Below, in pieces: positions 4,649 through 23,795 of a stretch of 64,000 bases of DNA (the stretch's first letter is position 1; the number at the start of each line of letters is the position of its first letter). Below the pieces are notes generated by a model, which had not been told where the DNA came from, ran no database searches, and saw nothing but the letters and a program-made list of their open reading frames with translations. The translations under genes and the position numbers were made by a program. Origin of the DNA: a virus. The DNA lies in the IMG/VR virus record IMGVR_UViG_3300031555_006030. One strand, written 5' to 3'.

Positions 4649-4989
4649 GCGCCCACCTCGCTATTCGGCGCTGAAGGGTGCAGCTCAATCTTCTTTGTAT
4701 CTGGATCGCCGCCAAGATCAATAATATGATATATATATTCGCCTCTTTTAATCGTTCCAACAAAGCACGCATATCTATCTCTTGAATTAAAGATGTGATC
4801 CATCTCCCAACCAGTCCCTACACATGCCATTAGATGATCTTCATATTCAGCAGTTGTGTCTACTTTTGCCCAAAAACATAAATTATTATGAGCATCGGCG
4901 CCAACACTTAACACTATTGCGCCCTTAGGCATTCTATATACCTGATTAATAAAATCTGGTTCAATTTTATATTTCCAAATAGTTTGCAT
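4645..4989 (-). CDS. hypothetical early protein
   Basis: 114-aa ORF. Confidence 0.45.
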   Translation of the reverse strand: MQTIWKYKIEPDFINQVYRMPKGAIVLSVGADAHNNLCFWAKVDTTAEYEDHLMACVGTGWEMDHIFNSRDRYACFVGTIKRGEYIYHIIDLGGDPDTKKIELHPSAPNSEVGA

Positions 4990-5067
4990 TATTTTTCTCC
5001 TTTAATAATCTTTAATTATATTATATCTTGAAAATTTTAAAATGTCAAGCCAAAACTCCTCGATCTA

Positions 5068-5096
5068 TTGACATTTTTCAAAATTTTTGGTATAAT
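5068..5096 (+). promoter_or_regulatory. consensus sigma-70 promoter at the start of the plus-strand late module
   Basis: TTGACAtttttcaaaatttttggTATAAT has an exact 17-nt spacer and an extended -10 TG; it lies about 30 nt upstream of the gene at 5128. Confidence 0.65.
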
Positions 5097-5127
5097 TTGA
5101 TTAAAGATAGATGAAAGGAGCCATAAT

Positions 5128-6297
5128 ATGGAAAAAATAACCTTATCAGACATTCTGCCAGAAGAAGACCCAGATACCGAAGACTCGGCTCCTGAACAAG
5201 AGGCAGAAGTTATTGAGGAGAAATTACTCGAAGAAAATATTGAATCTACTATTAAGCTAGACTATAAATTAAAAACCTGCGAAGAGCGCGCCGACCTTGT
5301 TAATAAGATCGTGGCGCAAACCCCTAAGGAGAAATTAAGCAATCGCTATTTAGAGATTTTAGGTGATTACATAATGGGCGGCATTAGTAAAGAAGAAAAA
5401 AAGGCGCGCCTATACTTGACTGATAATCGCTTGATAACGATTAATAAGCGCGAAACTTCTTTTGAAGGATTGGCAGAAAAGTTTGAAAATGGCGAAGATG
5501 GAATTTATAATTTGATGGTAAATGATAAAAATGTTTTACTTACACCTAAAATTGGAATTACAGATGAAGATATTAACACAATTCCTGGATTAAAAGAGCT
5601 TAAAATTCAAATGCAAGCCACTGAAGAGGCGATAAAAGCGGCAACTGGTAAAAAAAAGTATTTACTTAAAAAGTAGTTGATTGAAATGCGCCGTGATTAG
5701 TATGCGCTTAAGAATTCTGCTAAGCCTCCTATGTATTTGGCGCCCACGCCGCATGGATTAAACAAAGTTGACCTCTCTGAGCATCGGTGGGTTGATTCAA
5801 ATGGAAATCCTCAAAGCGATGGGCTAATATCCTTCTTTAATCCAGTTCACATTTTGGCAATTTTAAGTAATTACAATGCGTTAAAGTTAGAGACCAATGG
5901 GCGCTATCAAAATGACTTTTATTATCTTATGGAAGATTTTGACTTACTCTTGAATAAAAGCCTTGAAAAATATCCCCATTTTTTAGATTTCTTAAAAATG
6001 AAATTTGATGGAAAGACTAGCGCAGAAATTCAAACCATGTTAAAAGAAAAATATAATATCTCTTATTCAATTTAGTATATATCTTCTTTATGGAGAACTA
6101 AAATTCCAAAAATAATTGCAGAGAAGGCGCAAAATGATTATTTAATATGGCATTATACCAATGTAGAAAAGGGCGTTTGGAAAAAGTGCTCTTGTTGTAA
6201 ACAGCTAAAACCTTCTAGCACACGTTTTTTTTCAAAAAATAACACCAGTAAAGATGGATTGTATAGCATTTGTAAAGAGTGCAGAAATAAAAAATAA
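5128..6297 (+). CDS. hypothetical protein with a C-terminal Cys4 zinc ribbon
   Basis: Three in-frame track ORFs (5128, 5731 and the tail) are joined by reading TAG as sense. Every codon across the gaps was checked, and the gene ends in TAA at 6295-6297. Three TAG codons. Confidence 0.5.
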
Positions 6298-6370
6298 ATA
6301 TCAATTTTAATGAAATGATATTGTTCTATTTTTACTTTCAATAGAATTAACTACGAAAGGAGAATAATAA

Positions 6371-7582
6371 ATGGCAAAATATCATTGTGATAAATGCAAT
6401 AAAGAATTAGAAGAAGTTAATTTTTATAAATATCGAGACGGTAGTTATGTAGAATTGTGTAAAAAATGTTTAACAATGCATGTGGATGTTTTTGATCCAA
6501 GTACTTTTACATGGCTATTAGAAAAACTCGATGTTCCTTATATTCCACAAGAATGGAATACGGTTATTGAAAAGAAAATGGCGAAAAAGCCTGATGCGCC
6601 AATTTCACATTCCGCTGTTTTTGGATCTTACTTATCGAAAACAAAACTAAAATAGTGGAAAGACTTTTATTGGGCAGATAATGAAAAAATATAGGAAATG
6701 TATTTTTAGCAAAGCGCCTAGGCGTCTGCGGAAAAAGCTGAACTTGATGCAATGTATCAAGAGCAATTTGAATCTGGCTAGATTTCTGAAGCATAGTATA
6801 AAACTCTTACATCCCCCAAAGCGCGTAACGATTAGATGATGAGTATGCTAGCGGCGCATGGCCCTTATCTAGGAGAAAATAATCCATATGATGAAACTCA
6901 ATTTCTTGATGATGCGGAGATTCCTGATCCTGCAGCACACATGACTCAAGAAGAAAAGATTACTTTTGCAATGAAGTGGGGTAAGTTTTATAAGCCAAGT
7001 GAATGGGTTGAACTTGAAACAGATTATCAAAAGATGAAGAAGTCTTTTGATATTTAGGACGCAGACTCTGAGAATACTTTAATCCTTTTGTGTAAAACGA
7101 ATTTAAAAGCAAATCAAGCTATTGATTGCGGAGATATTGAAGGATTCCAAAAATTGTCTAAAGTGTCTGAGTCATTACGTAAATCAGCAAAATTCACTGC
7201 GGCGCAAAATAAAGAGCAAAAAGGCGACTTTGTTGATTCTGTTGGAGAACTTATAGCTATATGTGAACGAGATGGCTTTATTCCACGTTTTGCAACAGAT
7301 ATTCCTCAGGATAAAGTTGATATGACTTTAAAAGATATGAATGAATATGTGCGAAAGTTAGTTACTCAAGATTTAGGATTTGGACAACAAATTGAGGACT
7401 CGTTGAAAAAGATTATGATTCAAAATGAAATGAATAAAGAAGCCGAACGCCGCCAAGAGGAAGAAGGAGAAGATTATGATCCTTATGCGCCTACGGAACT
7501 TGATGATGAAGATATTATTGAACACTATGATAATCTTCTAGAAATGAGAAAGAAAGACCGAGATCTCTTGGAGAAAGAGTGA
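6371..7582 (+). CDS. hypothetical protein with an N-terminal zinc ribbon (possibly a terminase small subunit or DNA-binding protein)
   Basis: ORFs at 6371, 6836 and 7088 are in one frame and are separated only by TAG codons (about seven). The gene ends in TGA and overlaps the terL ATG. Confidence 0.45.
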
Positions 7583-7586
7583 TATT

Positions 7587-8206
7587 ATGGCAGTTCAAGA
7601 TTTAATTAATCTCGCTCTTGAAGGGGGCTAGAAAAAGATTGGTATTTCTGAAGAGCGAATAAGAGTTTAGATTCCAATAATTCGTTAGTATGTAGCTTAT
7701 TGGCGTGAGTACCCAGATATGTTTGTAGAGTTTCTTTGTGGTTCTAATCCAGAGAACTTTTCACTATTCTTTTATTAGCGTCTTTTTTTGCGCGCAGTTA
7801 TGCGTCATAGATATGCTTATGCCACTTTCCCTCGTGCATATTCAAAGAGCTTCTTATCAGTACTTGTTTTAATGCTTAGATGCATACTTTATCCCGGTAG
7901 TCATTTATTCGTTACTACAGGCGGCAAAGAGTAGGCGGCGGGTATTGCTAAAGAAAAGTCAGATGAGCTTTGTAAGTTAATACCTGGTTTAAAAAATGAA
8001 CTAGATATGACAAGAGGTAAAACTAAAACTAGTAAAGATAATATTGAATTAATATTCAAAAATGGTTCAAAATTAGACATTATGGCTGCGCGCCAGTCCT
8101 CTCGTGGTAAACGTGCTACTGGTGGTTTAATGGAGGAATGTATTCTTATAGACTAGACCTTGTTGAATGAAGTAATAATCCCTAGATACTGGGGCGCAGC
8201 AGCGTG
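7587..8206 (+). CDS. terL: terminase large subunit, ATPase domain (exon 1; includes TAG codons)
   Basis: It has a deviant Walker A PRAYSKS and the pattern RGKRATGGLMEECILID (Arg finger and Walker B). The reading frame ends at TGA 8204-8206 and is followed by GC-rich non-coding RNA. Confidence 0.6.
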
Positions 8207-9293
8207 AGCTACTGTGGAAAACGGTGTGAACCTGTGATACAAGGGTGTGGATCTTCGGATCTGCTAACGGGGAACAGTCAAAAACCCCGTGCCAAGCTTC
8301 ACCGTATGGTGTTGAAGGTGTAGAGACTATCCGGGATGAGTGTACCGGTTAGGGTGGAATTGATCACCACTCGAAGCGCACCGCAACTAAAAATTTTGGT
8401 CAAATTTTGATAATATTGCTACTTTAAATTTTATATATTCATGAAAGGGAATAATCCCGGGATAGAATGTAAATCAAAAGGAGTAATATTATGTGGAAAA
8501 AATTTTATTTTGAAGGTGTTGAAACAGATTATAGTGTTTCAACAGAAGGGGTAGTAAGAAAAGACACAACAGACTATATTTTATCACAATCTTCTTAGCA
8601 GGATTATAAATTTGTAACTTTGCTTATAGCAGGAAAACAAAAAAGAATGAGAGTGCATAGAATGGTGGCTGAAACTTTTCTTGACAATCCAGAAAAGAAA
8701 CCTTATGTAAATCATATTAATGGTAATCGTGGAGATAATAATGTTGAGAATTTAGAATGGGTTACTCCCTCAGAAAATACTCAGCATGCTATAGAAACTG
8801 GTTTATTCATGTCCGGTAGGGCAAGACCAGTAATTCAATATAATCTTGACGGTGTGCAGATGGCAACCTTTGAAAGTGTCTCTGAGGCAGCTCGTCAAAC
8901 AGGCGGTTCACAAAGCAAAATCACAATGTGTTGCAGACGTCAAAGATAGACAGCTAATGATTACCAATGGAGATATTATGATGATATTCAAGATGTGACC
9001 AAAATTGAGAAAAAATTTATAACGGGCAAAAAGGTTGCTCAATGTGATGAAAATGGAAATATTTTGGCAATTTTTCCAAGTTTCAAAGAAGCGGCGAGAG
9101 CCGTAGATGGGACCTCTTCAGCCATTAGCAGAGTATGCAGTGGTATGAATATTCGTCACAAAGGTTATAAATGGAAATTAGTTGATGATATAGTCCAAGA
9201 AGACATCTAATAGATGTTTTCTTGACCATGAACGTAGACCGAAGACTTTCAGACGGCTCTCGTATAGAAGATGAGACTGTTAACAAATCGTAG
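8207..9293 (+). mobile_element. putative group I intron interrupting terL (boundaries approximate)
   Basis: It begins with a ~250-nt stretch of ~50% GC with stops in all frames and a GATCTTCGGATC tetraloop hairpin. An R-like GTAGAGACTATCC at 8320-8332 and an S-like GATATAGTCC at 9187-9196 can form P7 (GACUAU paired with AUAGUC). The HNH ORF lies between them. Confidence 0.5.
8490..9210 (+). CDS. HNH homing endonuclease (NUMOD4 N-terminus, HNH_3 core, two IENR/NUMOD-like C-terminal repeats)
   Basis: The sequence reads YSVSTEGVV...HRMVAETFL...VNHINGNRGDNNVENLEWVTPSENTQHA. The repeats FESVSEAARQTG and FPSFKEAARAVDG follow. Two in-frame TAG codons; the gene ends in TAA. Confidence 0.7.
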
Positions 9294-10373
9294 ATTTATG
9301 TGACTACCGCAGGATGGAAAAACAGCTTCGCATACGAGAAACTTATAGAACTTCTTATTCGTCAGATTATCTACCCTGATGAAGCAGTTGTTATGGGTGG
9401 AACTTGGCGCATTCCTGTTATGGAAAAATTATTGAAGAAAAGTTTTATTGAGGAATTAAAGCTTGATGGAACTTATAATGATGCATCTTTTAGCCGTGAA
9501 TATGAGTCAGAGTGGTCTGGAGATGCCGAAAATGCGTTTTTCTCTGCAGAAAAGTTTGATAAACATCGTCAATTATTACAGCCAGAATATGAATTCTCTG
9601 GCCGCACCTCTAAAAATGGTTATTATGTATTAGGAATTGACGTTGGCCGTTTTAAATGCACTACAGAGGTATGTGTATTTAAAGTTACTCCATAGATATA
9701 GGGCGCTGCACATAAATCTTTAGTTAATCTCTATTCTTATGAAGCAGAGGACTTTGAAGCGCAAGCTATTAAAATTAAGAAGTTATTTTATAAATACAAG
9801 GCGCGTATTGCGGCAATAGACGCGAATGGTCTTGGCGCAGGTCTAATTGACTTTATGACAAAAGGTCAAGAAGATCCAGAAACAGGAGAATATTTACCTC
9901 CTTTTGGAGTTGAAGGCGGAACCTCAGACGAGTTTAATGAATAGTATAAGAAAATTAAGGGTCCCGGTGTTGAGGAAAATGCTATGTATTTAATTAAAGC
10001 TAATGCGCCTATTAATACAGAAGCACATACTTATGTTCAAACTCAATTAGTTGGTGGTAAAATTAATTTATTAATAGATGAAACTTAGGCTAAAACTAAA
10101 TTGATGACAACTAAGATGGGATAGGAAATGGATGCGGCCAAGCGCGCAGAGTATCTAAAACCTTTTACTTTAACCACCATCTTGCGCGAGCAATTATTAA
10201 ATTTAGTAGAAGACAACGAAGGTGTTAATATTATTCTTAAGTAGTCTTCAAGAAGTATTCCCAAAGATAAATTTTCTGCTTTTGAATATGGTTTATATTA
10301 TATTAAACAAGAGGAAGATCGTAGTAGAAAAAGAAAGAAAAGAAACATATCTGAAATGATGTTCTTCTCGTAA
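9294..10373 (+). CDS. terL: terminase large subunit, nuclease domain (exon 2)
   Basis: IYVTTAGWKNSFAY matches the motif III consensus (iiSTPnG.NhFY). YVLGIDVGR marks the start of the RNase-H-like nuclease domain. It is in frame with ORF 9300, spans several TAG codons and ends in TAA at 10371. Confidence 0.6.
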
Positions 10374-10445
10374 CAAAATTTCGGACAATTTTAAATAAAC
10401 TATATTACACATTTTTTATATAACAATAGTAAAGGAGTGATACAA

Positions 10446-10802
10446 GTGAAAGCAAGTCGCGGAGAGATTAAAATTTGTGATATTTTAACTGAAGCGGGTG
10501 TCTCTTTTACTGAAGAATATTCATTTCCAGATCTTGTTGGACATACTAAAACCCCTTTGCGTTTTGATTTTGCGGTTTTAGATGATGATGGAGAAGTTGA
10601 TTTTTTAATTGAATATCAAGGTATCCAACATTATGAGCCCAAGTCTAAATTTGGCGGTGTAGCAGGTTTACGCCAATAGCAATACTATGATATGTTAAAA
10701 AGGGAATATTGTAAAAAACACAATATTCCCTTGGTTTTAATTCCTTACTATGACGAAGGAAGAATAAACTATGACTATATTTTTAAGGCTGCTGGTTATT
10801 GA
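10446..10802 (+). CDS. small PD-(D/E)xK/DUF559-like nuclease-fold protein
   Basis: The pattern DFAVLDDDGEVDFLIEYQGIQHY is present. One TAG codon; ends in TGA. Confidence 0.4.
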
Positions 10803-10827
10803 CAAGATTTAAAATTTTGAATATAAT
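10799..10827 (+). promoter_or_regulatory. consensus sigma-70 promoter immediately upstream of the portal gene
   Basis: TTGACAagatttaaaattttgaaTATAAT has a 17-nt spacer. Confidence 0.6.
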
Positions 10828-10844
10828 ATTTAGAGAAAGAAGAG

Positions 10845-12455
10845 GTGCTTAACTTGAATAACAGAATACAAGAGATTCATTCTAAAGGTTTTGATATAAG
10901 CACCCCAAGAAGTGCTCCAGTAGATGGAAATGTTATTCCAGAGTTGGACTATTCAAAGATAAAAGTAGGAATTAGACATCTTGACGACGCAGTCGTTAAT
11001 TTGGGTAATTATAAGAAACTTGATCCTCGTATGACAAAAGAGCGTATTTAGCAGGCTATTGCTAGAGGCGATATAGAGTTTATGAGAGAGGCTTCTGAGT
11101 TCTACTTTAAAGTAAGTGGTATTTATTCTAGACTTTGTAAACACCTTGCTAATTTTTATAGATACGACTGGTTCATTATTCCTTATGCTACTTCAAATAA
11201 AGTTACTCCAGATAAGATTATTGAAGGTTTTGATAAAAATAGTGCTTATCTCGATGCTTTTGGCGTAAAAGAGTATTTTGGCGAAGTGGCATTAAAAATA
11301 ATGCGCCAAGGGTGTTATTACGGATATATTATTGAGGATACAGATACTGCGCAAGTGCAAGAGCTTTTGCCAAGATACTGTAGATCAAGATATAGCGTAA
11401 AGGGACGTCCGGCAGTAGAGTTTAACATGAAGTTTTTTGATGACTTCTATAAAGATAAAGATCAGCGCCTTCGTATCTTAAAAATGTTTCCACGAGATTT
11501 TCAAAAAGGATATACTGCTTATATTAATGGATAGTTAATTCCAGACTTTCCTGGAGATACTGCGGGATGGTATTTGCTCGACCCAGAGCATACTATGAAA
11601 TTTAATATTAATGGCGAAGATTATCCTCCTTTTATTTCGGTTATTCCACATATTATTGATTTGGATGCCGCTCAAGAGTTGGATAGAAAGAAAATGGCTC
11701 AAAAGCTTCTCAAAATCATTATTTAGAAAATGCCATTAGATAAAAATGGCGATTTGATATTTGATGTTGATGAAGCACAACAGCTTCATAATAATGCTGT
11801 TAGAATGTTAGGTAAGGCTATTGGTATTGATGTATTAACAACTTTTGCAGAGGTAGAAGTTGCTGATATGGCAGATAAAAATACTGCTACTACTATTGAT
11901 GAATTAGAAAAGGTTGAGAGAACCGTTTATAATGAATCTGGTACTGCACAAAATTTATTTAATACCGATGGTAATATCGCATTAGAAAAGAGCATTCTTG
12001 ATGATGAAGCGAATATGTATAACCTTCTTCTTCAATTTTAGTCATTTTTAAATTATATTATCAAACCTTTGAATAAAAATCCAAAAAAGTTATATTATAA
12101 AGTTGAAATACTTCCTACAACAATTTATAATTATAAAGATATGTCAAAAATTTATAGAGAACAAAGCGCGCAAGGCGGCTCTAAGCTGCTTGCTAGCATT
12201 GCTTTAGGACAATCTCAATCGGCAGTTTTAGCAACTGCAAAGTTTGAAAACGAGGTTCTTGACATTTCTAGTCTCTTCCAATCTAAGCAACAAAAAGAAG
12301 AGGCAAAAGCAAAAATTCAAAATAGCAACAAACCTGCTGAAAATAATGAAAACAAGTAGGAAGAAGTTGTTGAAAAAAAGAAAGTCGGCAGACAAGAAAA
12401 GCCTGATGATCAAAAAAGCGAAAAAACAATTCGCAATAAAGAAGCTATGAGCTAA
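10845..12455 (+). CDS. portal protein (SPP1 gp6-like)
   Basis: Four in-frame track segments (10845, 11082, 11730, 12069) are separated only by TAG. YSRLCKHLANFYRYDWFIIP is a portal-like segment. TTG start; ends in TAA. Confidence 0.75.
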
Positions 12456-12472
12456 GGAGAGGAGAAACGCAA

Positions 12473-13894
12473 ATGCATAAATCAGTTGCTACGATAAGCT
12501 CTCCTGAGTTTATCAATTTACAACCCCTTGATATCAATCCACTTATGAGCGCCTGTGAGATTAAGGTCTTATATGTCGGTGAAAATCGAAACAGATCCTA
12601 TATTACCAAAGATGTCGCAACGGAAATGGCGAAGACATTACGCGGCGCGCCCATTGTTGGTTATTATAAGGAAGAAAAAGAAGACTTTAGAGACCATGGC
12701 CGTGAAGTTATTATTGATGACGAGGGCATTAAATTTAACTGCAAAACCGTTCCTTATGGTTTTGTAGCTCCAGACGCAAAGGTATGGTTTAAAGAATTTG
12801 AAGATACCAATGATTTTGGAGAAACTATTTTGAGAGAGTATCTAATGACTACTGGATATTTGTGGACCGGTCAATTTGAAGAGTGTAAGTCCGCCGTTGA
12901 GAGTGATGGCAAGCCGCAATCAATGGAATTGGATGAAGATACCTTACAAGGGCACTGGGAAACCAATACTCGTGGCATGGATTTCTTTATTATAAATGAC
13001 GCAATTTTTTCAAAACTTTGCATTTTGGGCGATGACATTGAGCCTTGTTTCGAAGGCGCTAGTGTTACTGCGCCAAATGTTAGTGCGTCTTTTACAAAGG
13101 TAGACGATACCTTTAGACAAACATTATTTACTATGATGCAGGAACTTCAAACTGCATTACAAGGAGGTCAGCAAATGAACAACGATGTTGTTGAAAATGT
13201 TGTTGTCGAGGAGCCTGTAGTTGAGTTTAGCGCTGAGCCTGAGTTTGAGCCGGTTGTTGAACCTAGCTTTGAGCCAGAGCCTGAGACACCAGCAGAACCT
13301 TCTTTTGCTGCATCACAAGAGCCAGTTGTTGAAGATGCGCCAGTCGTTGCTGAAGAGCCTGTGACTGAGCCTGTTGTGGATGAACCTGTAGTTGAGCCAG
13401 TTGCAGATCCAGAACCTGCGGCTGAACCTACTCCTATGGATCCTGAACCGGCGTCCGCGCCTTCTATAGAGGAGCAGTTTACTGCGCTTCAAGCAGAGTA
13501 TGCAGATCTTCAGAGTAGATTCTCTACTCTTGAGTCTGTCCACAATGATCTTCAATCTAGATTCTCAACTCTTGAAACTGCGCATGCAGAACTTGTTGAA
13601 TTTAAAAGACTAAGTGACGATGCAAAGAAAGATGAAATGATTGGAAAATTCTACATGCTTAGCGATGATGATAAGGCAGATATTATTTCAAACAAAGCTA
13701 ATTACACTGTAGAAGAAATTGAAGAAAAACTTTCTGTAATTTGTTTCAGAAAAAAGGTCAATTTTGAATTAGAGGATAACTCTAAAATTAATAATAAAAT
13801 AGAGCAACCAGCTGTGACATTTAATGTGTCCGACCTTGGCGTTGCTTCTAAGCCCGACTGGTTAAAAGCAGTCGATAATGCGAAAAATCAATAA
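12473..13894 (+). CDS. scaffolding protein (acidic; EPVV and LQSRFSTLE repeats)
   Basis: A 473-aa uninterrupted ORF between portal and capsid, with a coiled-coil/acidic repeat region and no TAG codons. Confidence 0.55.
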   Translation: MHKSVATISSPEFINLQPLDINPLMSACEIKVLYVGENRNRSYITKDVATEMAKTLRGAPIVGYYKEEKEDFRDHGREVIIDDEGIKFNCKTVPYGFVAPDAKVWFKEFEDTNDFGETILREYLMTTGYLWTGQFEECKSAVESDGKPQSMELDEDTLQGHWETNTRGMDFFIINDAIFSKLCILGDDIEPCFEGASVTAPNVSASFTKVDDTFRQTLFTMMQELQTALQGGQQMNNDVVENVVVEEPVVEFSAEPEFEPVVEPSFEPEPETPAEPSFAASQEPVVEDAPVVAEEPVTEPVVDEPVVEPVADPEPAAEPTPMDPEPASAPSIEEQFTALQAEYADLQSRFSTLESVHNDLQSRFSTLETAHAELVEFKRLSDDAKKDEMIGKFYMLSDDDKADIISNKANYTVEEIEEKLSVICFRKKVNFELEDNSKINNKIEQPAVTFNVSDLGVASKPDWLKAVDNAKNQ

Positions 13895-13914
13895 TTTTAA
13901 GGAGGACATATAGC

Positions 13915-14436
13915 ATGGCTACTACTATTAAGCGTATTGGATTTGGTCAGGTTGAGCCTAATCATTTATCCGCTCAAAGAAATGGTCAAGTTTACGCACA
14001 ACTTCCTTGTAATAAGGATATCGCTATTCTTGAGAATGGTCAGTTCGTAAAGTATGACTATAAAACTGGCGAAGTTAACTTCACAGGCGCCGGCGAGTGG
14101 ATGCTCGTTATGAATGAAGTTAAAATTTATGATGCAAGAGAGTCTTATAAAGATTTTGCTCTTGTAAAGACAAATTATGATGATGGAATTATGGTTCCTA
14201 GAGTTCTTGCAACTCATGTTGGAGATATTTACACTACAAACTGCCTTGAGAAGGGAAATACTTCTGGTAAGGCTGAACTTGTTGGTACTGAGGAAATTGA
14301 TGTTGGAACCGAGCTTAAGATTAACGCTCAAGGTTTCCTTTCTACCGAAGGTACTAGCGATATTGTATTCCAAGTTGTAAAAGTTTATACAATGCCTGAT
14401 GGCCAACAAGGCATCAAGGTTATGCGTATTCAATAA
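13915..14436 (+). CDS. hypothetical head protein (possibly decoration)
   Basis: 173-aa ORF with no TAG, located between the scaffold and capsid genes. Confidence 0.4.
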   Translation: MATTIKRIGFGQVEPNHLSAQRNGQVYAQLPCNKDIAILENGQFVKYDYKTGEVNFTGAGEWMLVMNEVKIYDARESYKDFALVKTNYDDGIMVPRVLATHVGDIYTTNCLEKGNTSGKAELVGTEEIDVGTELKINAQGFLSTEGTSDIVFQVVKVYTMPDGQQGIKVMRIQ

Positions 14437-14456
14437 TAAAAGGGAGGGAAATAGTA

Positions 14457-15494
14457 ATGGCATTAAATAGAGAAGATTTACGTACATTAGCAATGCAGAC
14501 AGCAGGCGCTAATCCTTCTGCTCCCGTTGCATACTCGTTTAGCGGCACTAATTATAGTTATGCAGATTTAAACCAAGCTCTTCGTAATGAGTTAAAAGAG
14601 CTTGTTGGTTCATATGCTCTTTGGAGAGAAAATCATAATGTTGTGTTTGCACTTATGGAAGAAATTATCACAGATAAACTTCCTGCCAAGGTTATGCAAC
14701 AATATGGCGCCTTCGCTGAAATTAAAACTTATAAACAGGGTGAAAAGCCTATCTTTACTCAAAAGATTACTGAGGCTTCTCGTAGACGTGCAAAGCAATT
14801 CGTAACCAAGGTTGGTTCTGCTGGTCGTTATGAAGTTTTCAAGCTTGATGGTCGTAGCTACGAAGTAACTACATCGGCTATCGGTGCAGCTTGTCAAATC
14901 GCTATTGAGGAATTCCTTGATGGACGCGTTGATATGGCTACCCTTATCGACATTATTATGGAGGGTATGGATGACAAGATTTATCTTGAAATCGCTAATG
15001 CTCTTATCGCAACTGTTGAGACAATTCAGACTGCGAATAAGTTTAAGACTGATAAGTTTGATGAAGGTGAAATGGATGCGCTTCTTGCAGTTGCCGATTC
15101 TTATGGTAATGGCAGATCTACGATCTATTGCACATTTGAGTTTGCATCTACAATGATTCCTGCAGAGGGTTGGGTATCTGACACAATGAAGGATCAAATG
15201 TGGGCAAATGGTTACCTTGGTAATTACAAGGGACATCAAGTAATTGTTCTTCGTCAGTCTTTCACTGATGAAACAAATACAAAGAAAGTCATTGATCCTG
15301 CTTATGCTTGGATTATTCCTGGCGGAGCTGAAAAGCCTGTTAAGATTGCCTTTGAAGGTGATACTTGCATTAAGGAAGAGGATAATGATGACTGGTCTAA
15401 GGGCATTCACTTCTATAAGAAGGTTGGAGTTGCCGCTATCGTTAATAATGATATTTGTGTTTATCAAAACACATCTCTCACACTTGATAGATAA
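14457..15494 (+). CDS. major capsid protein
   Basis: 345-aa ORF in the expected position, followed by a strong terminator. No TAG. Confidence 0.65.
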   Translation: MALNREDLRTLAMQTAGANPSAPVAYSFSGTNYSYADLNQALRNELKELVGSYALWRENHNVVFALMEEIITDKLPAKVMQQYGAFAEIKTYKQGEKPIFTQKITEASRRRAKQFVTKVGSAGRYEVFKLDGRSYEVTTSAIGAACQIAIEEFLDGRVDMATLIDIIMEGMDDKIYLEIANALIATVETIQTANKFKTDKFDEGEMDALLAVADSYGNGRSTIYCTFEFASTMIPAEGWVSDTMKDQMWANGYLGNYKGHQVIVLRQSFTDETNTKKVIDPAYAWIIPGGAEKPVKIAFEGDTCIKEEDNDDWSKGIHFYKKVGVAAIVNNDICVYQNTSLTLDR

Positions 15495-15504
15495 TTAAGA
15501 TAAA

Positions 15505-15550
15505 GCAAGAGGGAAGAGAAGATATACTTCCCTTCCCTCTTAAATTTTTT
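15505..15550 (+). terminator. rho-independent terminator after the capsid gene
   Basis: An agagggaag...cttccctct stem is followed by TAAATTTTTTA. Confidence 0.5.
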
Positions 15551-15573
15551 AGGAGATAAAAGGAGTTAAAAAT

Positions 15574-16152
15574 ATGTTAAATAACACTGATAAAATTAGA
15601 ATTGAAAATAGATCTAATTCTATTGTTTCGTATCATGTGCCAGAATCCAATACTATTAGACGTTTTGTTGGAAATGAAGTAAAAGAAGTTTCTATGGGAG
15701 AATTGCGTCAAGCGATTCAAATTCCCGGCACTAGAAGATTAATTGAAAGTGATTTAATTATTCATAGCAAAGAAGCAGTCGATGAATTGCTACCTAATGC
15801 TGAGCCCGAATATTTTTATAATACTAAGGATGTAGAGTTTCTTTTAGAGCGTGGTACACTTGATCAGCTTTATGATGCTCTTGACTTTGCGCCAGAGGGT
15901 GTCGTTCAACTAATTAAAGATGAAGCTGTTAAGACCAATCTTAATGATATGCGCAAGAGAGAGGCTATATTAGAGAAAACAAACTTTGATGTTACTAAGG
16001 CTATTGAAATTAGACGCTTAAGTGAAACTGCAGTTAAAACCGAAGTAAAAACAAGACGCGCAACCCCTTTAACTGAAGATGCTGTTGAAAATAAGTCTGA
16101 AACACCTACAAGACGCATGAGCGCGCCTAAGTATACTATCGTCAAAGAATAA
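15574..16152 (+). CDS. hypothetical structural protein
   Basis: 192-aa ORF with no TAG. Confidence 0.45.
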   Translation: MLNNTDKIRIENRSNSIVSYHVPESNTIRRFVGNEVKEVSMGELRQAIQIPGTRRLIESDLIIHSKEAVDELLPNAEPEYFYNTKDVEFLLERGTLDQLYDALDFAPEGVVQLIKDEAVKTNLNDMRKREAILEKTNFDVTKAIEIRRLSETAVKTEVKTRRATPLTEDAVENKSETPTRRMSAPKYTIVKE

Positions 16153-16178
16153 TATATAAAGAAAAGGGGTGATTAATA

Positions 16179-17142
16179 ATGAATATTATTATACCATCAC
16201 TTGATTCCGTTAAAATAACAGAGACAAATTCTGCGTCTTTAACTACAACTAAAATATTTATTATAAGTAATTATATACCACAAACTCTTATATTAACAAA
16301 TACTGCTAAGCAAGAGTTTAATTGTATTTTAATTAGAGATGAAAAGCAAGATAAGTTTTCTTTGGGTTTAAATTGCTATTTAATAAGCTCTAAAGAAAAT
16401 ATTCCTGCTGGAGGATATACGGGAAAATTAACCGTAATAGAAGATGTTGAAAATGCTACTTAGAAAATAATTGATCTTGGATCTTTTGAATTTTCTTCAG
16501 GATTAGTAGATGAACATGCTCCAATTTATATTAAAGAAAGAAGAATTGGGGAGATTACTACACCAATTTTAGCATAGGATTTAAATTCTCAATAGATTAT
16601 TTTCTATATTTAGAAATCTTATGATGGAATATCTTTTTTGGATGAAACAAAAACTGTATGGGTAGATTATATACCAGCAGATTTTGAGCCTATTTATGAT
16701 CCAAACACTGGAAAAACATTAGAATTTTTATCGTCAAACGACGTAGAAGTTGATGATGCTAATCCTGAACCCGAAAGTGGAATTGATTGGATTAGATTAA
16801 TATGGGATGTTCCTAAAGCTGCAATGAGAGCTCCTGGAGAGGTTAAGTTTGCCATTTCTGTTTTAAACAGCTTTGCAAAAGAAACCTAGTCTGTAAGTTA
16901 TGTTTGGCAGACTTTTCCATCATCTTTTATAGTATATAAAAATCTTGGTTCTCGTCCTGAACTTCCAGTAGAAAGTCAAGATGACAGTGATTTTGCAACT
17001 GAACTTGATAATCGTGTTAAAGATTTAGAAAAAGCAGTAGACGCCTTATAGACTTTAGATAATACATCTGATAAAACAGATTATAAATTTGAATTAGGCG
17101 GAGGCGGAGCAGACTCTGTATTAAATGAGGAGGCAACGACAT
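16179..17142 (+). CDS. hypothetical structural protein (six TAG codons)
   Basis: ORFs 16179 and 16638 share a frame and are joined through TAGs; the gene ends in TGA at 17140. Confidence 0.45.
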
Positions 17143-17755
17143 GACTGATTTAAATGTTATTTATAACAGCTTTCTTGATTAGATTACAGATGATATGTAT
17201 ATGGAATTAACAAAAGAAGAAACAGAAAGTATGCTGTTTAATCTTTTTGAAAGCGCCTTACCGTGGTTTGAGTTTCCTCGTTTTGATTTATTTAGTTATG
17301 ATAAAGAGTTTGGCATGTATAAAGCAAATTTAACTTATGAAGAGATTAAAATTATCTCAATCTATATGATCGTTGAGTGGATTGGACAATAGTTAGCAAA
17401 TATTGAACTAGTTCGCATGAAATATAGTGGTAGTGATTTTAAGTTTACTTCTTAGGCTAATCATATGCATAAGCTCAAAGATATGCAAAAGGAATATGAG
17501 AGAAAAGGATTCCATTTGCAAAGACTATATAAGCGAAGAAAAGCAGATATAAATGGAGTTATGAGATCTACTTTTGGAAGTATAATGGATCCTCCTCAAA
17601 CACCTGTTTTCATAGACAGTGTTGCCGCTAAAAACGCAATTGAAAAATTAAATGAAGAAGTAAAAGGATTGCAACAATTTGTTGGAAATCAAGCAAACAC
17701 TAATCCTACTGATGATGAAGAGGTAATTATCTCTGGCGGAAAAGCTTTATAGTAA
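17141..17755 (+). CDS. head-tail connector/adaptor-like protein
   Basis: ORFs 17195 and 17465 are in frame with the ATG at 17141. TAG codons are present; ends in TAA. Confidence 0.45.
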
Positions 17756-17767
17756 GGAGATATTGCC

Positions 17768-18085
17768 ATGCTGTTAAAGTACGATTTTAATATTGATAAC
17801 AATGCAATTCAAGCAAATCTTAAGAGATTAACAAATCAAGTTTATAAATTGCTCCCAATAAGAGAAGAGGGCGCCGATTGGTAGAAACCTTTAACCACTA
17901 TCTTAGAGGAGTTGTCTGGAATGGACAGTTTGTTTTTCGGTCAACATACTGTTTTATTTACTTTAATCTGTAAGCTTGAAGGACTTTTTAATTTAACTGA
18001 AAAAAATGATTTCTTATTATATCGAGGAATTATTTTTGAATGTTTAAATCTATTAAGTGAGTTAAATAAAATATGTCAGGTTTAA
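17768..18085 (+). CDS. hypothetical head-tail joining protein
   Basis: ATG at 17768; one TAG; ends in TAA at 18083 and overlaps the next gene's start. Confidence 0.4.
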
Positions 18086-19098
18086 CGGATTTACAAAAAA
18101 GATTAAACTATCGCGGCGGCGCGCGATAGATAGACCGAATGATTGCGGATAAAGAACGAAGCTTAAATAAGGCATTACTTTATTCGTATTAGTCTGCAAC
18201 TATTGAATTAGTTAAAAACGGCAATTAGTTTAGATGTTTAATTAATCCAAACAAACTTACAATGGAAGCAGACGATAAAGTTATTTCAATACCTTTTGAA
18301 GATATCTGTCTCAATACAGAAAAACCCGAAGGTGAAATTACTTCAACTGGTAAGTAGAAGATTGATTTAGCCGTTGGTGATGTTGTAAAGTGGAAAGGAA
18401 AAACAGAAGATAGAGATACTTATTGGATTGTTTATTCTTAGTATTTACAAGAGACTGCCTATTTTAGAGGTCAAATGCGCCAATGTGAATCTGAGCCTAT
18501 TTCTATTAATGGAGTAGATTATTACTTCTATCTTAAGGGTCCTGATGAGAAAGGAATCGATTGGCAAAAATCTAAGCGTTTTATTTTTAACGATTTGAAT
18601 TATTCGTTAGAAATTTATATTACTAAGACAATAGAATCAAATGAGTTCTTTCAAAGATTTAAAAAATGTAAAGTCTTAGGGAAAAATTGGGAAGTACAAG
18701 CAGTTGACAGATATTCAACTGATGGTATTTTGATTGTTTATTTAAAAGAAGATTATGAGAATAAATGGGAAGATGCGCCGGACCAGGTTGAAGAAGATAT
18801 TATCTAGTCTGAACCAGAAACGCCAGCTACATTTGGTCTTAAACAGGCACCAGCGCCTGTTTCTCCAAGCATTGAAGGGCCAAATGAGGTATATCCTTAT
18901 GACATCGCTTCCTATAGCATTCTTAATGCAACTGGTGGTCAGTGGTTTTTAAGCAACAAGCGCGCCCGCATTAAGAGTTCTAATGATTCTTCTGTTGTAG
19001 TTGAGATTACTACTGGCAGAAGTGGTAGTGTTAGCTTAATATATAGAGTTGAAGGTATGAATGATATTACTTATAATATTAATATACTTTCATTATGA
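18073..19098 (+). CDS. hypothetical tail/neck protein with a C-terminal Ig-like region
   Basis: In frame with ORF 18475; six TAG codons; ends in TGA. Confidence 0.45.
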
Positions 19099-19115
19099 GA
19101 TAAAAGGAGTTTGTT

Positions 19116-19685
19116 ATGCAGAGAAATTTAATTGATACAAAACCATTAACTTCATCATTTCTTTCTTGTGAAAAAGATACGGAGCTTATTTTACGAAAGC
19201 TTTTTGTTGAGTCTTGTCAACATGGAGAGACTCTTAAAAAATTATTAGTAGTTTAGGCGCCAGATGTTCTTGACAAGAATTATGATGTAAGTGAGTATAC
19301 ATTAAAAAAGCTAATTGATGAAGAGTATATTAATATGGATCCTCTTATTAAGTTGCCAGAACATGCTCAAATCAAGGCTTTTATGGGACTTCATTTTGAT
19401 AACTTTACACCCAATGCAACGAATCCAGAGTTTAGAGATTCTATGATTCATATTGATGTTGTTTGCCACCATGACCATTGGCATCTTGGAAACTATCGTC
19501 AAAGACCTTTTAAAATTTTAGGTTAGATTGATGGTATTTTAAATAAGAGTAAATTGACCGGTATTGGTCAAATTAATTTTGTAGGATGTAGTAAAGCGGT
19601 TCTTAATGAGGATTGGAGTGCTTTTGCGCTAACCTATATGGCAATTCATGGAAGCGAGGACAAGATTCCTTTTGTTGAAGAATGA
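19116..19685 (+). CDS. hypothetical tail-completion-like protein
   Basis: In frame with ORF 19335; two TAG codons; ends in TGA. Confidence 0.45.
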
Positions 19686-19686
19686 G

Positions 19687-20424
19687 TTGGTTTTACTCTC
19701 TGGAGCAGATATTCCTTTTGTTGAAGGAACTGTAACCATTCACTAGCCAAAATTATATGAAATCTCTATGCTTGGAGAAGAGGCTTTATTTATTGGCTGT
19801 GAATTGTTGCGTTTTAGCAAAGATATATTAAATATTGAGGACAAAAATAGATTAATCAATTAGAAAGATTTTAATATATTAATGTCGATAATGAATGATA
19901 ATAGTGAATCAATGATATTTAATGTATCTTGTGCAAAACAAGTGTTAGAATTAATTTTCCCATTGTATGAAGTTATTTATACTCCAATGGCAATTTTACT
20001 TGTTGATCGGAATGATAGCACTACTTTGTGTGGAGAAATTAATTCAGAGAATTTTGATGCTTTTAAAGATATCTTAAATTAGATGTTTTGTTTAAAAAAA
20101 GCATCCTCTGCGCCTACTTATAACGCGTAGAGCGAATTAGCGAAACAGATTGCGGAAAAGTTTAAGCGTAGACAACAAAAGCTTGCCGAATTATAGTCGT
20201 CTACTAGTAAAAAGAAAATTGCAGTCTTTAGTAGATATATTTCGATATTAACAGTTGGATAGCATAAGGATATGAATTCTTTTATGTAGTACACTGTTTA
20301 TCAATTATTTGATGAATTTCAGCGGTGGGAGCTTAAAGTAGCTTTTGATAGTTATGTATAGGCGCGCATGGCTGGGGCAAAAGATTTAGAAGAACCTTAG
20401 GATTGGATGAAAGACCTCCATGAA
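19687..20424 (+). CDS. hypothetical protein (tail terminator position)
   Basis: TTG start; in frame with ORF 19882. Codons were checked one by one; six TAG codons; ends in TAA. Confidence 0.4.
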
Positions 20425-20465
20425 TAAAAGTTCTTAATATTAAAATTATAAGGAGGATAAGTCCT

Positions 20466-21347
20466 ATGAAATTTGGCGTACGCGAAATATGCAATGTCGT
20501 TTTCAAGGCTAAGTCACAGGTTAAGATTGGTAATACTACTTTCCAAGCCGGTCAACCCGTCCTTTATATCGATAGTGCAAAAACTTCTACTCTTGAAGGT
20601 GCTGCTACAACAGTTTATGCAACCGGTGGACGTGGAAATTCAAGATTACTTGCTTGGGAAGGAGAGAAGACTTTAACATTTACTGTTGAAGATGCTCTTC
20701 TTTCTCCTATTGGATTTGCTATTCTTTCTGGAGCAGGTCTTTTCAAGGGTAAGGAAGGTGACTCTGAAAAGGTTCATGTTCATGCAACGGCAACCGTCTC
20801 TTTTGATGATGAAGGTAAAGTTGATTTAGCTAACGCTTTATCTGCGTATGATGGCACAGAAGAACTTGATACAGTATCTCCTATTTATGTTTTAGAGATG
20901 GATGGAGACGATATTGTAGGTGAACCTAAAACAGCAACAGCAACAGCTGAAAAAACTACCATTACGGTAACTGGTTTAGAAGGAAAAACAGCATTTGTAG
21001 ATTTCTACATTTTAAAAGATGCTGGTAAAGTAAGTGAGCTTCAAATTGACGCTGAAACTTTTGCTGGCTACTTTTATGTTGAAGCCAACTGCCTATTCAA
21101 GAGAAAGAAGGATGGAGTTGATATGCCTGCAGAATTAACACTTCCTAAGGTTAAGATTCAATCTAACTTTACTTTCAGCATGGCGGCAACTGGCGATCCT
21201 TCAACATTTACTTTCACAATGGATGCAATGCCTGATTACACATTCTTTGATAAGACTCGTAAAGTTCTTTGCGCAGTTCAAATTATTGAGGATGCTGTTG
21301 GCGGAAATATCGTTGTTGATTCAGTATTTGACGAAGATTACGTCTGA
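20466..21347 (+). CDS. major tail protein
   Basis: 293-aa TAG-free ORF upstream of the chaperone and tape-measure genes, followed by a terminator. Confidence 0.6.
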   Translation: MKFGVREICNVVFKAKSQVKIGNTTFQAGQPVLYIDSAKTSTLEGAATTVYATGGRGNSRLLAWEGEKTLTFTVEDALLSPIGFAILSGAGLFKGKEGDSEKVHVHATATVSFDDEGKVDLANALSAYDGTEELDTVSPIYVLEMDGDDIVGEPKTATATAEKTTITVTGLEGKTAFVDFYILKDAGKVSELQIDAETFAGYFYVEANCLFKRKKDGVDMPAELTLPKVKIQSNFTFSMAATGDPSTFTFTMDAMPDYTFFDKTRKVLCAVQIIEDAVGGNIVVDSVFDEDYV

Positions 21348-21354
21348 TTTAAAT

Positions 21355-21405
21355 AAGCACTTTATGGAGGAAGGAGGCGCGCCCGGCGCCACCTTCCTTT
21401 TATTT
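21355..21405 (+). terminator. rho-independent terminator after the major tail gene
   Basis: A ggaaggaggcgc...gcgccaccttcc stem is followed by a T-run. Confidence 0.5.
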
Positions 21406-21424
21406 TATAGATAAGGAGAGAGAG

Positions 21425-23138
21425 ATGAAAAAAAGAGAAAAATACAGATCTGCGCATGGTTGGTTTTATACTTATTATTACGCCAGTGATTATATTAAAA
21501 ATTATGGTGGTTCAGATGCAATTGAAAGAGCTTTAATGGAAACACATATAGAAAGTATTAAAAATCAAATTGCTAATAATCCTCTTTTTATCTCTTCTGA
21601 AGATGCAAAAAGAATTTAGATAATTTTAAATAGAAGAATAAAAAATCAAAATAAATAGATGCAAACTCTTTTACAAGCGGCAAAAAATGATCCGAATTCT
21701 GAGGCACATAAAGCTTTAATTGCATATATTTAGTAGTTGGGTAAAAAAGTGGATATTCAAACCGCAGAAGAAATTTTGCAAAAGTTAGAATGGGACGAGG
21801 TTTCTGGAGTATATAAATATACTGGAACCAATAATTTTTTTGACTCTAAAAAAACTGCATTTTATACCTGGTCACCTGGGGATGCCTCAATTTATCGTGT
21901 AAAAAGTAAAGCTTTAGAAAAAATAAATAGTTTTTTAAAAATTCTTTTAGAGACATTTTCAGAAGAGCAAATAAAATCTGTATAGAAGTCGATAGATGCA
22001 TTAAAAGATATTAAAAAAGATATAGAAAACGAAGATTGGTTAAATAATCCAACTATAAAAACCTTAGAAAGAAAAGACTCAATTCCTATTGAATATACTC
22101 GAACAGTAGAAGGACAAGAGTTAGATATTGCCAACGCAATATTTTCTTATATTTCAAATATAAAAAATGCTTTATCAGGAATAAGTGAAATTAATAAAAA
22201 CTTATCTTGGATTTATGCAGAATTAGTTGGTAACATAGCAGGATCATACGCAAAACCAATTGCAGAAGAAAAGCTAGCAAAAGAAATTTAGAACTGGGCA
22301 AAAAAAGGAAACACTAATTCTGGAAAAACTCATACTAGAGTTAAAAATCAAAAAACTTTTATAGATGCACAGGTCAGACTTTTAGATTAGGATTTTTTAT
22401 CAGCTACTCAAAAGGCAATAGATGAAGAAAAAGAGAAAGCAAAAAGACATATTGAATCTTATATTTAGAAAGTAAATAAAAATAGTAATAATGTACAATA
22501 TTCTTTAAAACCACAAGTCAGCGCTTAGGGAAAAGCTGATGCAGAATTGACAGTTACTATTGATAATAAAAAGAAAAAACTTGGAATGTCTTTTAAAAAC
22601 TATAATTTGGAAACAGGAAATGGAATTACTTTACAAGACTCTGGTTTCTTATTAAATTATCTTGCAGATGCTCCTTCTGACTATTTTATGGAACATATTC
22701 TAAATATTTATGCAGAACATCCAAGTGAGGGACAAGAATCTTCTTATGCTCAGCAAGTTAATGGTTTAAGAGAGAAGGCAAAGAATGCTTTAAAAATAAA
22801 TTTATTATTTAGTGCATTAACTGGTTATAATTAGGGAAGAAGAGGTCGAGAAGCATAGCTATTAGTTGTATATAATAAAAACAGTGGCGCAAAAAAAGGA
22901 GAACTTCCTCCAGTTAAAGTATATAGTATGGGATCAATAGTCTTAGATATTTTAGATAATCAAGATTTTTCTGCTATAAGAACTACACCTAATTTTTCAA
23001 ACACGCTATTTGAAAATACATGGGAAAACTCTATTGATAATAGTCCAAATAAAAAAGAAGCTGCATTAAGAAACACAAAATTATTATATGAGGCAAGATA
23101 GAAAAATATCTCTGTTTCTTTGGCAAAACGCATATTGT
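21425..23138 (+). CDS. hypothetical 570-aa protein (about 13 TAG codons)
   Basis: ORFs 21425, 21737 and 22547 share one frame and are linked only by TAG; ends in TAA. Confidence 0.45.
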
Positions 23139-23141
23139 AAC

Positions 23142-23170
23142 TTGACAAGTTAAAAAATTTTTTCTATAAT
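23142..23170 (+). promoter_or_regulatory. consensus sigma-70 promoter inside the late module
   Basis: TTGACAagttaaaaaattttttcTATAAT has a 17-nt spacer. Confidence 0.55.
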
Positions 23171-23211: not shown

Positions 23212-23730
23212 ATGAATTTTAAAGATTTAGATATTAAATTAATAAATGAATATAATACTTTTAACTTTAACGGTAATGAAATTAAAGTATTAAAATATCT
23301 TCCAATTGAAGATAAATTTGATTTAATTATGATTGCTCTTCAAAAATCTGTTACTAATGGTATTTATAATCCAATTAGACTTCAAACATTTTTTGAATTA
23401 AATATTATGTATCTTTATACTGATATTTTATTTGAGGTTGAGGAAAGAGTTGATGAAGGAGTACTTTATGATAAAATTAAAACATCGGGCCTCTTAGGAA
23501 AAGTGATGGAAAATATTGAAGAAAGCGAGATGCTTGAATTAAGTCACTTTTTGAGTGAGTGTTTAGAACTTGAAAAGAATTATCGCAATAGTGCGGCTGC
23601 AATTGTATCCAAAATTGTTGATGATTTGCCAAAGAACGCAGAAGCTGCAAAAGACATTGTTGATAATTTTGATAAAGAGAAGTATAGTGAAGCTTTAAAT
23701 TTTGCCAGATCCATTGGAATGAAGATTTAA
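23212..23730 (+). CDS. putative tail assembly chaperone
   Basis: 172-aa acidic TAG-free ORF directly upstream of the tape-measure gene. Confidence 0.4.
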   Translation: MNFKDLDIKLINEYNTFNFNGNEIKVLKYLPIEDKFDLIMIALQKSVTNGIYNPIRLQTFFELNIMYLYTDILFEVEERVDEGVLYDKIKTSGLLGKVMENIEESEMLELSHFLSECLELEKNYRNSAAAIVSKIVDDLPKNAEAAKDIVDNFDKEKYSEALNFARSIGMKI

Positions 23731-23734
23731 GGTC

Positions 23735-23795
23735 AATTTAAATTAATATAATTACCCTATTTATTATAATTAATAAGTAGGGTATTTTTATATCC
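23735..23795 (+). terminator. hairpin plus T-run after the chaperone gene
   Basis: taccctatttat...ataagtagggta is followed by TTTTTA. Confidence 0.4.

Follow-up and report, generated by a model that had tools for sequence, protein, structure and literature searches.

We describe here the promoters of a 64,000-nucleotide (nt) stretch of viral DNA, IMG/VR virus record IMGVR_UViG_3300031555_006030 (hereafter the window), with particular attention to three plus-strand promoters, P1, P2 and P3, that lie at the head of and inside a block of late genes in which the stop codon TAG is used as a sense codon. Their sequence, position and conservation support P1–P3 as genuine, conserved promoters of the sigma-70/sigma-A type. 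We consider it probable that they are functional host primary-sigma promoters within a genome-wide system of two promoter classes, in which transcription units end at intrinsic terminators with read-through and timing is not exerted via TAG decoding.

Consensus promoters in the window

Both strands of the whole window were searched for the motif TTGACA-N17-TATAAT, with the expectation taken from dinucleotide-preserving shuffles. Six exact matches were found against 0.02 expected, and 14 sites with at most one mismatch against 1.04 expected; matches to 9 of the 12 hexamer letters hardly exceeded expectation (85 vs. 69 in the shuffles). Three of the exact matches, each with 12 of 12 hexamer letters, are on the plus strand, and all three stand before gene starts, as an initial annotation of this DNA had proposed. 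That annotation missed three exact matches and four intergenic one-mismatch sites, all of them on the minus strand. The sites and the genes that they precede are as follows.

5068 to 5096, plus strand: P1, exact match with a TGn extended −10 element; spacer TTTTTCAAAATTTTTGG; 32 nt before the ATG of gene 5128–6297
10799 to 10827, plus strand: P2, exact match without TG; spacer AGATTTAAAATTTTGAA; 18 nt before the start of a portal-to-capsid-like unit
23142 to 23170, plus strand: P3, exact match; spacer AGTTAAAAAATTTTTTC; 42 nt before gene 23212–23730
5020 to 5048, minus strand: divergent partner of P1, exact match; spacer TTTTAAAATTTTCAAGA; heads the leftward gene 4645–4989
52147 to 52175, minus strand: exact match; 31 nt before gene 51688–52116, in a unit that runs on to the dUTPase gene
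50361 to 50389, minus strand: one mismatch (TTGACT); spacer TTATAAAAAATTTCAAG; 27 nt before the RuvC-like resolvase gene 49825–50334
510 to 538, minus strand: early-class promoter, exact match, TGATATAAT; first in the leftward array
1106 to 1134, minus strand: early-class promoter, one mismatch (TTGACT), TGTGGTATAAT
1902 to 1930, minus strand: early-class promoter, one mismatch (TTGACT), TGTGATATAAT
3414 to 3442, minus strand: early-class promoter, one mismatch (TACAAT), with TGTGG ahead of the −10 hexamer

According to a relaxed scan, every exact or intergenic one-mismatch site except 3414 lies 18–65 nt before a same-strand gene start, and the numerous weaker matches are located within genes. 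Site 3414 falls inside a predicted open reading frame (ORF), the true start of which is probably downstream. P1, P2 and P3 each lie within, or border, an intergenic gap, and each of the starts behind them has a strong Shine-Dalgarno sequence. P1 occupies the divergent gap between the leftward gene 4645–4989 and the rightward gene 5128–6297, back-to-back with the promoter at 5020, their −35 hexamers 19 bp apart. The −35 hexamer of P2 contains the TGA stop of gene 10437–10802, so that the two overlap by 4 nt, and P3 begins 2 nt past the TAA stop of gene 21425–23140. The overlap with upstream genes earlier proposed for two of the three sites therefore applies to P2, whereas P3 only abuts its neighbour. 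Judged by these features, P1–P3 read as ordinary strong sigma-A promoters with a modestly interesting class defined by the spacer.

Two promoter classes defined by the spacer

The spacers of late-strand promoters contain an A-tract/T-tract, AAAATTTT, whose A|T junction lies at position 9–11. The pattern A3+T3+ was present in the spacers of 20 of 28 non-redundant late-strand sites, compared with 5 of 67 sites on the opposite (early) strand and 2% of random 17-mers. Within the window such spacers occur at 5068, 10799 and 23142 and, on the minus strand, at 5020 and 50361, and at none of the four early sites (510–3442), which show TGnTATAAT in place of the A/T-tract spacer. Divergent promoters with A/T tracts are likewise present in three related loci (L004, L011 and L015). 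We refer to the TGn type as class I and to the A/T-tract type as class II.

The class I sites of the window continue beyond its left end. One related locus (L078) is an exact extension of that end, and the next 10 kb contain 13 further exact promoters, all 13 with TGnTATAAT and all directed away from the late module. Dense early arrays, with 7–13 promoters per 10 kb, were also found in relatives, the cultured Enterococcus phage EF1 among them. Class II promoters head minus-strand units as well (5020 and 50361), and the exact consensus promoter at 52147 heads a unit on the replication strand; consensus promoters are therefore not late-specific.

Given the spacer length of 17 nt, this A|T junction corresponds to about −21 to −19, inside the −22 to −18 interval of the spacer Z-element. 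This element is contacted by the beta′ zipper, as shown for the E. coli, T. aquaticus and B. subtilis polymerases, and it modulates open-complex formation, including that by the B. subtilis sigma-A holoenzyme (PMC3173786); sensing of the spacer by sigma-70 has also been described (PMC3130263). The interval is the same, but the described Z sequence is AACCT/AACAT, not AAAATTTT. A second parallel is PN25 of coliphage T5, a strong, factor-independent promoter for host polymerase with the spacer TCAGGAAAATTTTTCTG (PMC4447248), which is also 17 nt long and contains GAAAATTTTTC, so placed that its A|T junction keeps the register seen in P1–P3. PN25 differs from P1–P3 in its −35 hexamer (TTGCTT), in being an early T5 promoter of a phage with a Gram-negative host and in that no distinction of spacer classes has been described for it. 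Because both the Z-element interval and the register of PN25 coincide with the class II junction, we favour, by analogy, an intrinsic polymerase-DNA feature over an operator as the explanation of the AAAATTTT block.

Conservation across three genetic codes

Relatives were collected through the protein of the gene behind P1 and through the tube-like and capsid-like genes, giving 72 IMG/VR loci on contigs of up to 175 kb; the P1-gene protein has more than 4,500 metagenome homologues. The cultured relatives are the Enterococcus phages EF1, EF5, H1 and VRE9_1-4 (134–142 kb; 38% identity in the P1-gene protein), and VRE9_2 has the same PHROG families as the window in almost the same order. A megablast of 20 kb against INPHARED gave nothing useful, and no close match was found among GenBank phages. 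The clade mixes genetic codes: some loci read TAG as sense, some read TGA as sense and most use the standard code. Relatives at 40–80% protein identity (L001–L066) thus comprise three codes, with the same gene order and the same promoter positions.

An exact or near-exact orthologue of P1 with a 17-nt spacer was found 50–170 nt upstream of the same gene in most loci covering the region (L001–L007, L010 and L012–L014; protein identity 42–68% in the IMG/VR relatives), standard-code relatives included, and EF1 has an exact orthologue 71 nt before the gene, the protein of which is 38% identical. Sites orthologous to P3, defined as having no more than one mismatch and a spacer of exactly 17 nt, occur 2.0–3.3 kb past the tube-like gene in 40 of the 43 loci with enough sequence, that is in 7/7 TAG-recoded, 7/9 TGA-recoded and 26/27 standard-code loci. 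P2 has a counterpart, with one mismatch allowed, in 23 of 60 related loci, located at −46 to −59 relative to the start of the portal gene. When 40 late segments of 20 kb each were examined, near-consensus plus-strand sites piled up at the P3 and portal positions only. The spacer is exactly 17 nt long at the window sites and in every orthologue with at most one mismatch.

Because the same promoters stand at the same places in standard-code and TGA-recoded relatives, we take the promoter layout to predate recoding, to be independent of it and to form part of the normal transcription layout of the family. The gene behind P1 carries between 0 and 7 reassigned stops across the relatives, the number varying by genome.

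TAG recoding and its distribution

Reading TAG as sense raised the ORF coverage of the 5–47 kb region from 40% to 95%, and recoding of TGA or TAA gave no such rise, which bears out the earlier claim that the late module is TAG-recoded. In-frame reassigned stops are concentrated in late genes. Glutamine is the most likely reading of TAG, since the three TAGs of gene 5128–6297 align with columns that homologues conserve as Q, Q and Q/E.

None of the 40 Gln-type codons of genes 12473–15494 (the scaffold-like gene, the gene at 13915 and the capsid-like gene) is TAG, compared with 33% in the module. In every one of the 16 recoded relatives (7 TAG, 9 TGA; loci L016–L059) the tube-like gene lacks reassigned stops. 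The reassigned codon seems to be avoided in those virion genes that are expressed most strongly. The P3 gene also lacks TAG, an absence that carries no weight because the gene has only two Gln codons. The initial annotation had placed temporal control at translation, through TAG decoding, and this did not hold up: the same promoters are found at the same positions in standard-code and TGA-recoded relatives, the main products of the P2 unit are encoded without a single TAG and class II promoters point leftward as well. Given that the scaffold-like, 13915, capsid-like and tube-like genes are TAG-free, TAG decoding cannot gate the most abundant late proteins.

A suppressor tRNA was found neither in the window, nor in its 10-kb left extension, nor in 27 related loci, and the 64-kb window has no tRNA of any kind. 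In the window, the decoration-like and tube-like genes are also without TAG (regions 12473–16152 and 20466–21347). The minus-strand RuvC-like resolvase gene 49825–50334, which lies behind the class II promoter at 50361, has five in-frame TAGs, so that recoding is not confined to the plus-strand module.

The gene behind P1

The gene that P1 precedes is the following.

5128 to 6297, plus strand: YonG-like gene, first of the rightward module; 389 aa, with TAG at codons 183, 191 and 316

The N-terminal part of its product matches Pfam PF27269 YonG_N, and the C-terminal part contains a putative sigma-4/LuxR-like helix-turn-helix (HTH) and a Cys4 zinc ribbon made by four invariant cysteines. To our knowledge, no function has been established for YonG. 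PHROGs assigns the gene to family 5767, 'sigma factor' (E = 1.7e-44), a label that our searches did not confirm. Pfam detected no sigma domain in this protein or in 55 diverse members of its family, nor in the homologues annotated in phi36, E3, Sundance and EF1; sigma region 2, responsible for core binding and −10 recognition, was not found in the product; an NCBIfam scan of the protein gave no match; and a profile search of PDB sequences returned nothing relevant. Enterococcus phages annotated with pharokka inherit the 'sigma factor' name. In PP680567-70, NC_029073, NC_028749 and PV389078 the name derives solely from the PHROG 5767 label, and none of four proteins so named that were scanned has a Pfam or NCBIfam sigma domain.

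In recoded relatives the gene carries reassigned stops in 12 of 12 examined; nine of these read cleanly with 1–7 TAG or TGA codons, and in one locus (L012) 20 stops, representing all three stop codons, interrupt the reading frame that was matched. By its domains and position, the YonG-like protein would be a conserved DNA-binding protein heading the packaging block. Its role may lie in transcription, as a factor, or in recognition of DNA for packaging, conceivably as a small terminase. As to the earlier claim that the window has no dedicated late sigma factor, no verified sigma was seen; its absence, however, is not assertable, as the P1 gene encodes a putative DNA-binding protein with a sigma label in PHROGs.

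Search for a separate late motif or polymerase

When 329 late intergenic gaps taken from about 50 relatives were scanned for enriched k-mers, only Shine-Dalgarno contexts, T-runs, TTTGACAA and TATAAT emerged, with no rival late motif among them, and AAATTT..TATAAT without TTGACA was never found. Phage RNA polymerase was absent from the window proteins scanned, a set that excluded nine large tail genes, and no RNA polymerase is annotated in the fully annotated syntenic phage VRE9_2. The part of the earlier proposal that assigned late transcription to host sigma-70 is in keeping with these results, in that host-type promoters head late units and no polymerase, proven sigma factor or rival motif was seen; it needs the qualification that consensus promoters are not restricted to late genes.

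Inspection of late gaps by eye brought up one candidate, CTGRAAAGATG, which was rejected as a late motif: it has three occurrences, before tail-fibre genes only, and is not enriched overall. The exact copies, at 32092, 34365 and 38218, lie 25–40 nt before the tail-fibre-like genes starting at 32145, 34391 and 38264, and two of these leaders are nearly identical (..AATTCTTTGAAAGGAGATTAAGAAT). They are probably a duplicated 5′ region, but may instead represent a local regulatory element.

Organization of the late module and its surroundings

The plus-strand block 5128–49806 begins with the YonG-like gene, a PHROG 3314 protein, a large terminase split by an insert with an HNH endonuclease, a small endonuclease-like gene and the portal, and continues with scaffold-like, decoration-like, capsid-like, tube-like and tape-measure-like genes followed by tail genes. 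To its right the minus strand encodes the RuvC-like resolvase, dUTPase, NrdD/NrdG, a split DNA polymerase III alpha and a helicase, and to its left small genes without homologues. The units and terminators of the block are listed below.

10700 to 10732, plus strand: 13-bp hairpin followed by TTGGTTTT, within the 3′ part of gene 10437–10802, 67 nt before P2
10845 to 15494, plus strand: P2 unit, with the portal gene (5 TAG) and the TAG-free genes 12473–13894, 13915–14436 and 14457–15494, the last of them capsid-like
15506 to 15542, plus strand: intrinsic terminator, a 16-bp stem followed by TTTTTT, closing the P2 unit after the capsid-like gene
21366 to 21400, plus strand: GC-rich terminator hairpin after the TAG-free tube-like gene 20466–21347
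23212 to 23730, plus strand: P3 gene, 172 aa, phrog_30570 (function unassigned), just 5′ of the 1867-aa tape-measure-like gene
23755 to 23782, plus strand: hairpin resembling a terminator, with a T-run, at the end of the single-gene P3 unit
29435 to 29477: hairpin with a T-run after the tape-measure-like gene

The hairpins ending at 15542, 21400 and 23782 are immediately followed by the next ribosome-binding site; because no promoter fits in between, the genes past these terminators would be reached by read-through. In VRE9_2 a phrog_30570 gene occupies the same position as the P3 gene. The hairpin at 10700–10732 may terminate the P1 unit. Its perfect 13-bp stem falls in the stretch of the small endonuclease-like gene that encodes the conserved peptide REYCKKHNIP, and a hairpin is present at the same codons in L001, L019, L029, L031, L042 and L055, whether or not these loci have a portal promoter. 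The idea that P2 is a compensatory promoter tied to this hairpin was rejected as unproven, the hairpin being present also in relatives without P2.

Ribosome-binding sites in late-module gaps of the window and its relatives share an extended context, GAGATAAAAGGAG, beyond AGGAGG, with 8-mers about 6–7-fold enriched. The leftward early region (window 1–5000 and L078 7000–16700) has a G+C content of 40–44%, against 28–39% in the remaining window, and encodes dozens of proteins of 50–140 aa, mostly without homologues, nearly each of them with its own exact consensus promoter; the L078 extension also encodes a PemK-like toxin, a nucleoside deoxyribosyltransferase and tRNA-Pro(AGG).

Two genes are split. 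The large terminase (region 7587–10373) is divided into ORFs 7587–8207 and 9222–10373 by an insert made of a 283-nt G+C-rich, structured-looking segment and the HNH endonuclease gene 8491–9210; by its make-up the insert resembles a group I intron with a homing endonuclease inside it, and an endonuclease is found at this terminase position in EF1 and VRE9_2 too. On the minus strand, DNA polymerase III alpha (56534–61620) is divided into 59104–61620 and 56534–58009 with the GIY-YIG gene 58047–58889 in between, and GCTAACGGGG near 59000 recurs near 8270 inside the terminase insert. Another GIY-YIG gene, 54766–55443, follows nrdD. Group I intron models were rejected for both split genes, with no Rfam match even at E ≤ 1.

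Discussion

We infer that P1–P3 are recognized by the sigma-A holoenzyme of the host, that is by its primary-sigma (sigma-A/sigma-70) RNA polymerase, within a system of at least 25 consensus promoters spread over the genome of a phage of about 100–140 kb, which would infect Firmicutes and be related to the Enterococcus phages EF1/VRE9 and to mixed-code 'Agate'-type gut phages. Class I promoters, with a TRTG/TGn extended −10 element, form a dense array with a single promoter for each small gene of the leftward early region, while class II promoters, with AAAATTTT centred at about −22 to −18, occupy a few fixed places: the pair formed by P1 and the minus-strand promoter at 5020, the portal, the gene before the tape measure and the resolvase (50361). 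Both classes have the same hexamers. Late units would start at class II promoters and end at intrinsic terminators near 10732, 15542, 21400 and 23782, with read-through beyond, and their timing relative to class I would be set by promoter class or by a phage factor rather than by TAG decoding.

Several points weigh against this interpretation. P2 is absent from most relatives and P3 from EF1, which has neither of the two, so that neither P2 nor P3 can be indispensable for late expression. Orthologous promoters are not independent of one another, and the clade-wide class count (20 of 28 vs. 5 of 67) overstates the number of independent events. The product of the P1 gene may alter which form of the polymerase uses these sites. 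The k-mer scan was crude, and a degenerate late promoter without a −35 element, such as TGTTATATTA of Kayvirus, could escape it. Further, the view taken here covers 64 kb of the genome and an extension of about 10 kb, and promoter activity, strength and timing are all deduced from sequence only.

Among other explanations, P1 may be an early or middle promoter for a YonG-like factor, be it an alternative sigma, an activator or a Q-like antiterminator, that licenses the structural genes, with P2 and P3 as auxiliary promoters. We find this explanation rather unlikely. A more specific form of it, in which the YonG-like HTH/zinc-ribbon protein is a Q-like or sigma-appropriator licensing factor that recognizes AAAATTTT in class II promoters and has its own gene gated by a suppressor tRNA, strikes us as highly improbable. 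In recoded members the gene of this protein always has reassigned stops ahead of the part that encodes the DNA-binding domain (TAG codon 183 here). If the idea were true, the suppressor tRNA would gate one top regulator and not each late protein, and control of transcription would extend the gate indirectly to the bulk virion genes that lack TAG. The model of the initial annotation, in which P1–P3 are constitutive, late mRNA is made from the start of infection and a TAG suppressor tRNA sets the timing at translation, draws on the heavy recoding of the late module, on TAG codons in both the P1 gene and the portal gene, on consensus promoters that need no phage factor, on the failure to find another late motif and on the general proposal made for recoded phages (bioRxiv 10.1101/2021.08.26.457843). 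We judge it improbable, as promoter positions are the same in standard-code and TGA-recoded relatives, bulk virion proteins escape the gate (0/40 TAG in genes of the P2 unit, and a clean tube-like gene in 16/16 recoded relatives) and a suppressor tRNA was not seen in the window or the extensions.

The spacer block itself could be an operator through which a phage or host DNA-binding protein represses or activates class II promoters as a group and thereby sets their timing. The block is class-specific, held in a fixed register (A|T junction at position 9–11) and palindromic, as dimer-binding sites are, and lambda Q binds PR′ between its −35 and −10 elements. A near-identical block is nevertheless present in the factor-independent T5 promoter PN25, its position matches the polymerase's own Z-element contact, a pure A/T palindrome of 8 bp is very short for a specific operator and no candidate binder emerged, so that we regard an operator as quite improbable. 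That the matches are functionless chance products of an AT-rich genome could be argued from its G+C content (28–44%), the frequency of TATAAT-like strings and the small excess of 9-of-12 sites. This explanation has already been refuted by the match statistics, by gene positions, with all exact matches just upstream of same-strand genes, and by conserved orthologous sites that keep their positions and an invariant 17-nt spacer although the flanking proteins are only 40–70% identical; we give it practically no credence.

Recoded gut phages are uncultured, and the popular hypothesis for the timing of their late genes is one of translational control. The clade described here offers a natural comparison, since its TAG-recoded, TGA-recoded and standard-code members share one promoter/terminator layout. 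This comparison argues that the transcriptional organization is older than the recoding, which was superimposed and left the layout as it was, and the codon distribution argues that the most abundant virion genes were kept free of the reassigned codon. In practical terms, these phages can be annotated with a two-class promoter model defined by the spacer, and caution is advisable with the 'sigma factor' label of PHROG 5767, for which sigma-2 evidence is lacking altogether. In the cultured Enterococcus relatives EF1 and VRE9 the YonG-like protein can be studied directly, as can P1 and the early array. The promoters themselves are only mildly unusual, in their spacer-defined class and in its persistence across three genetic codes.

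Comparison with known systems

SPbeta transcribes its late genes with a polymerase of its own, YonO, and in this it differs from the phage described here, in which no YonO-type polymerase gene was seen. The two are alike in the YonG_N match and in the place of the gene at the head of a terminase/portal block; in SPbeta yonG heads an operon that includes yonF and yonE, whose products are presumed to take part in head packaging (PMC8880864). The mixed-code 'Agate' clade of recoded gut phages, described in a study that suggested gating at translation for recoded phages and left promoters aside (bioRxiv 10.1101/2021.08.26.457843), resembles our relatives in large genomes, in recoding concentrated in structural genes and in close relatives with TAG, TGA or standard code; in these respects our relatives match the description of that clade, to which they may belong. 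In lambda a strong, constitutive host promoter, PR′, stands before the late operon, with terminators downstream and a zinc-containing DNA-binding regulator, Q, whose site lies between the −35 and −10 hexamers; the window has a similar arrangement with a putative regulator, its spacer motif and downstream terminators being suggestive of antitermination of the Q type.

The closest described system is the transcription programme of Kayvirus. Staphylococcus phage vB_SauM-515A1 has 58 early promoters of sigma-70 consensus, some of them inside morphogenesis units or beside homing-endonuclease genes, and 12 late promoters without a −35 element (TGTTATATTA), mapped by RNA-seq and attributed to a phage sigma factor (PMC7698491). 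As in Kayvirus, short early genes are preceded here by TG-extended consensus promoters, a few consensus promoters are embedded in morphogenesis units and stand beside homing-endonuclease genes, terminators with read-through are predicted and one gene is annotated as a phage sigma factor. Unlike in Kayvirus, we found no late class without a −35 element; on the late strand both hexamers are retained, and the promoters are set apart by the spacer alone.

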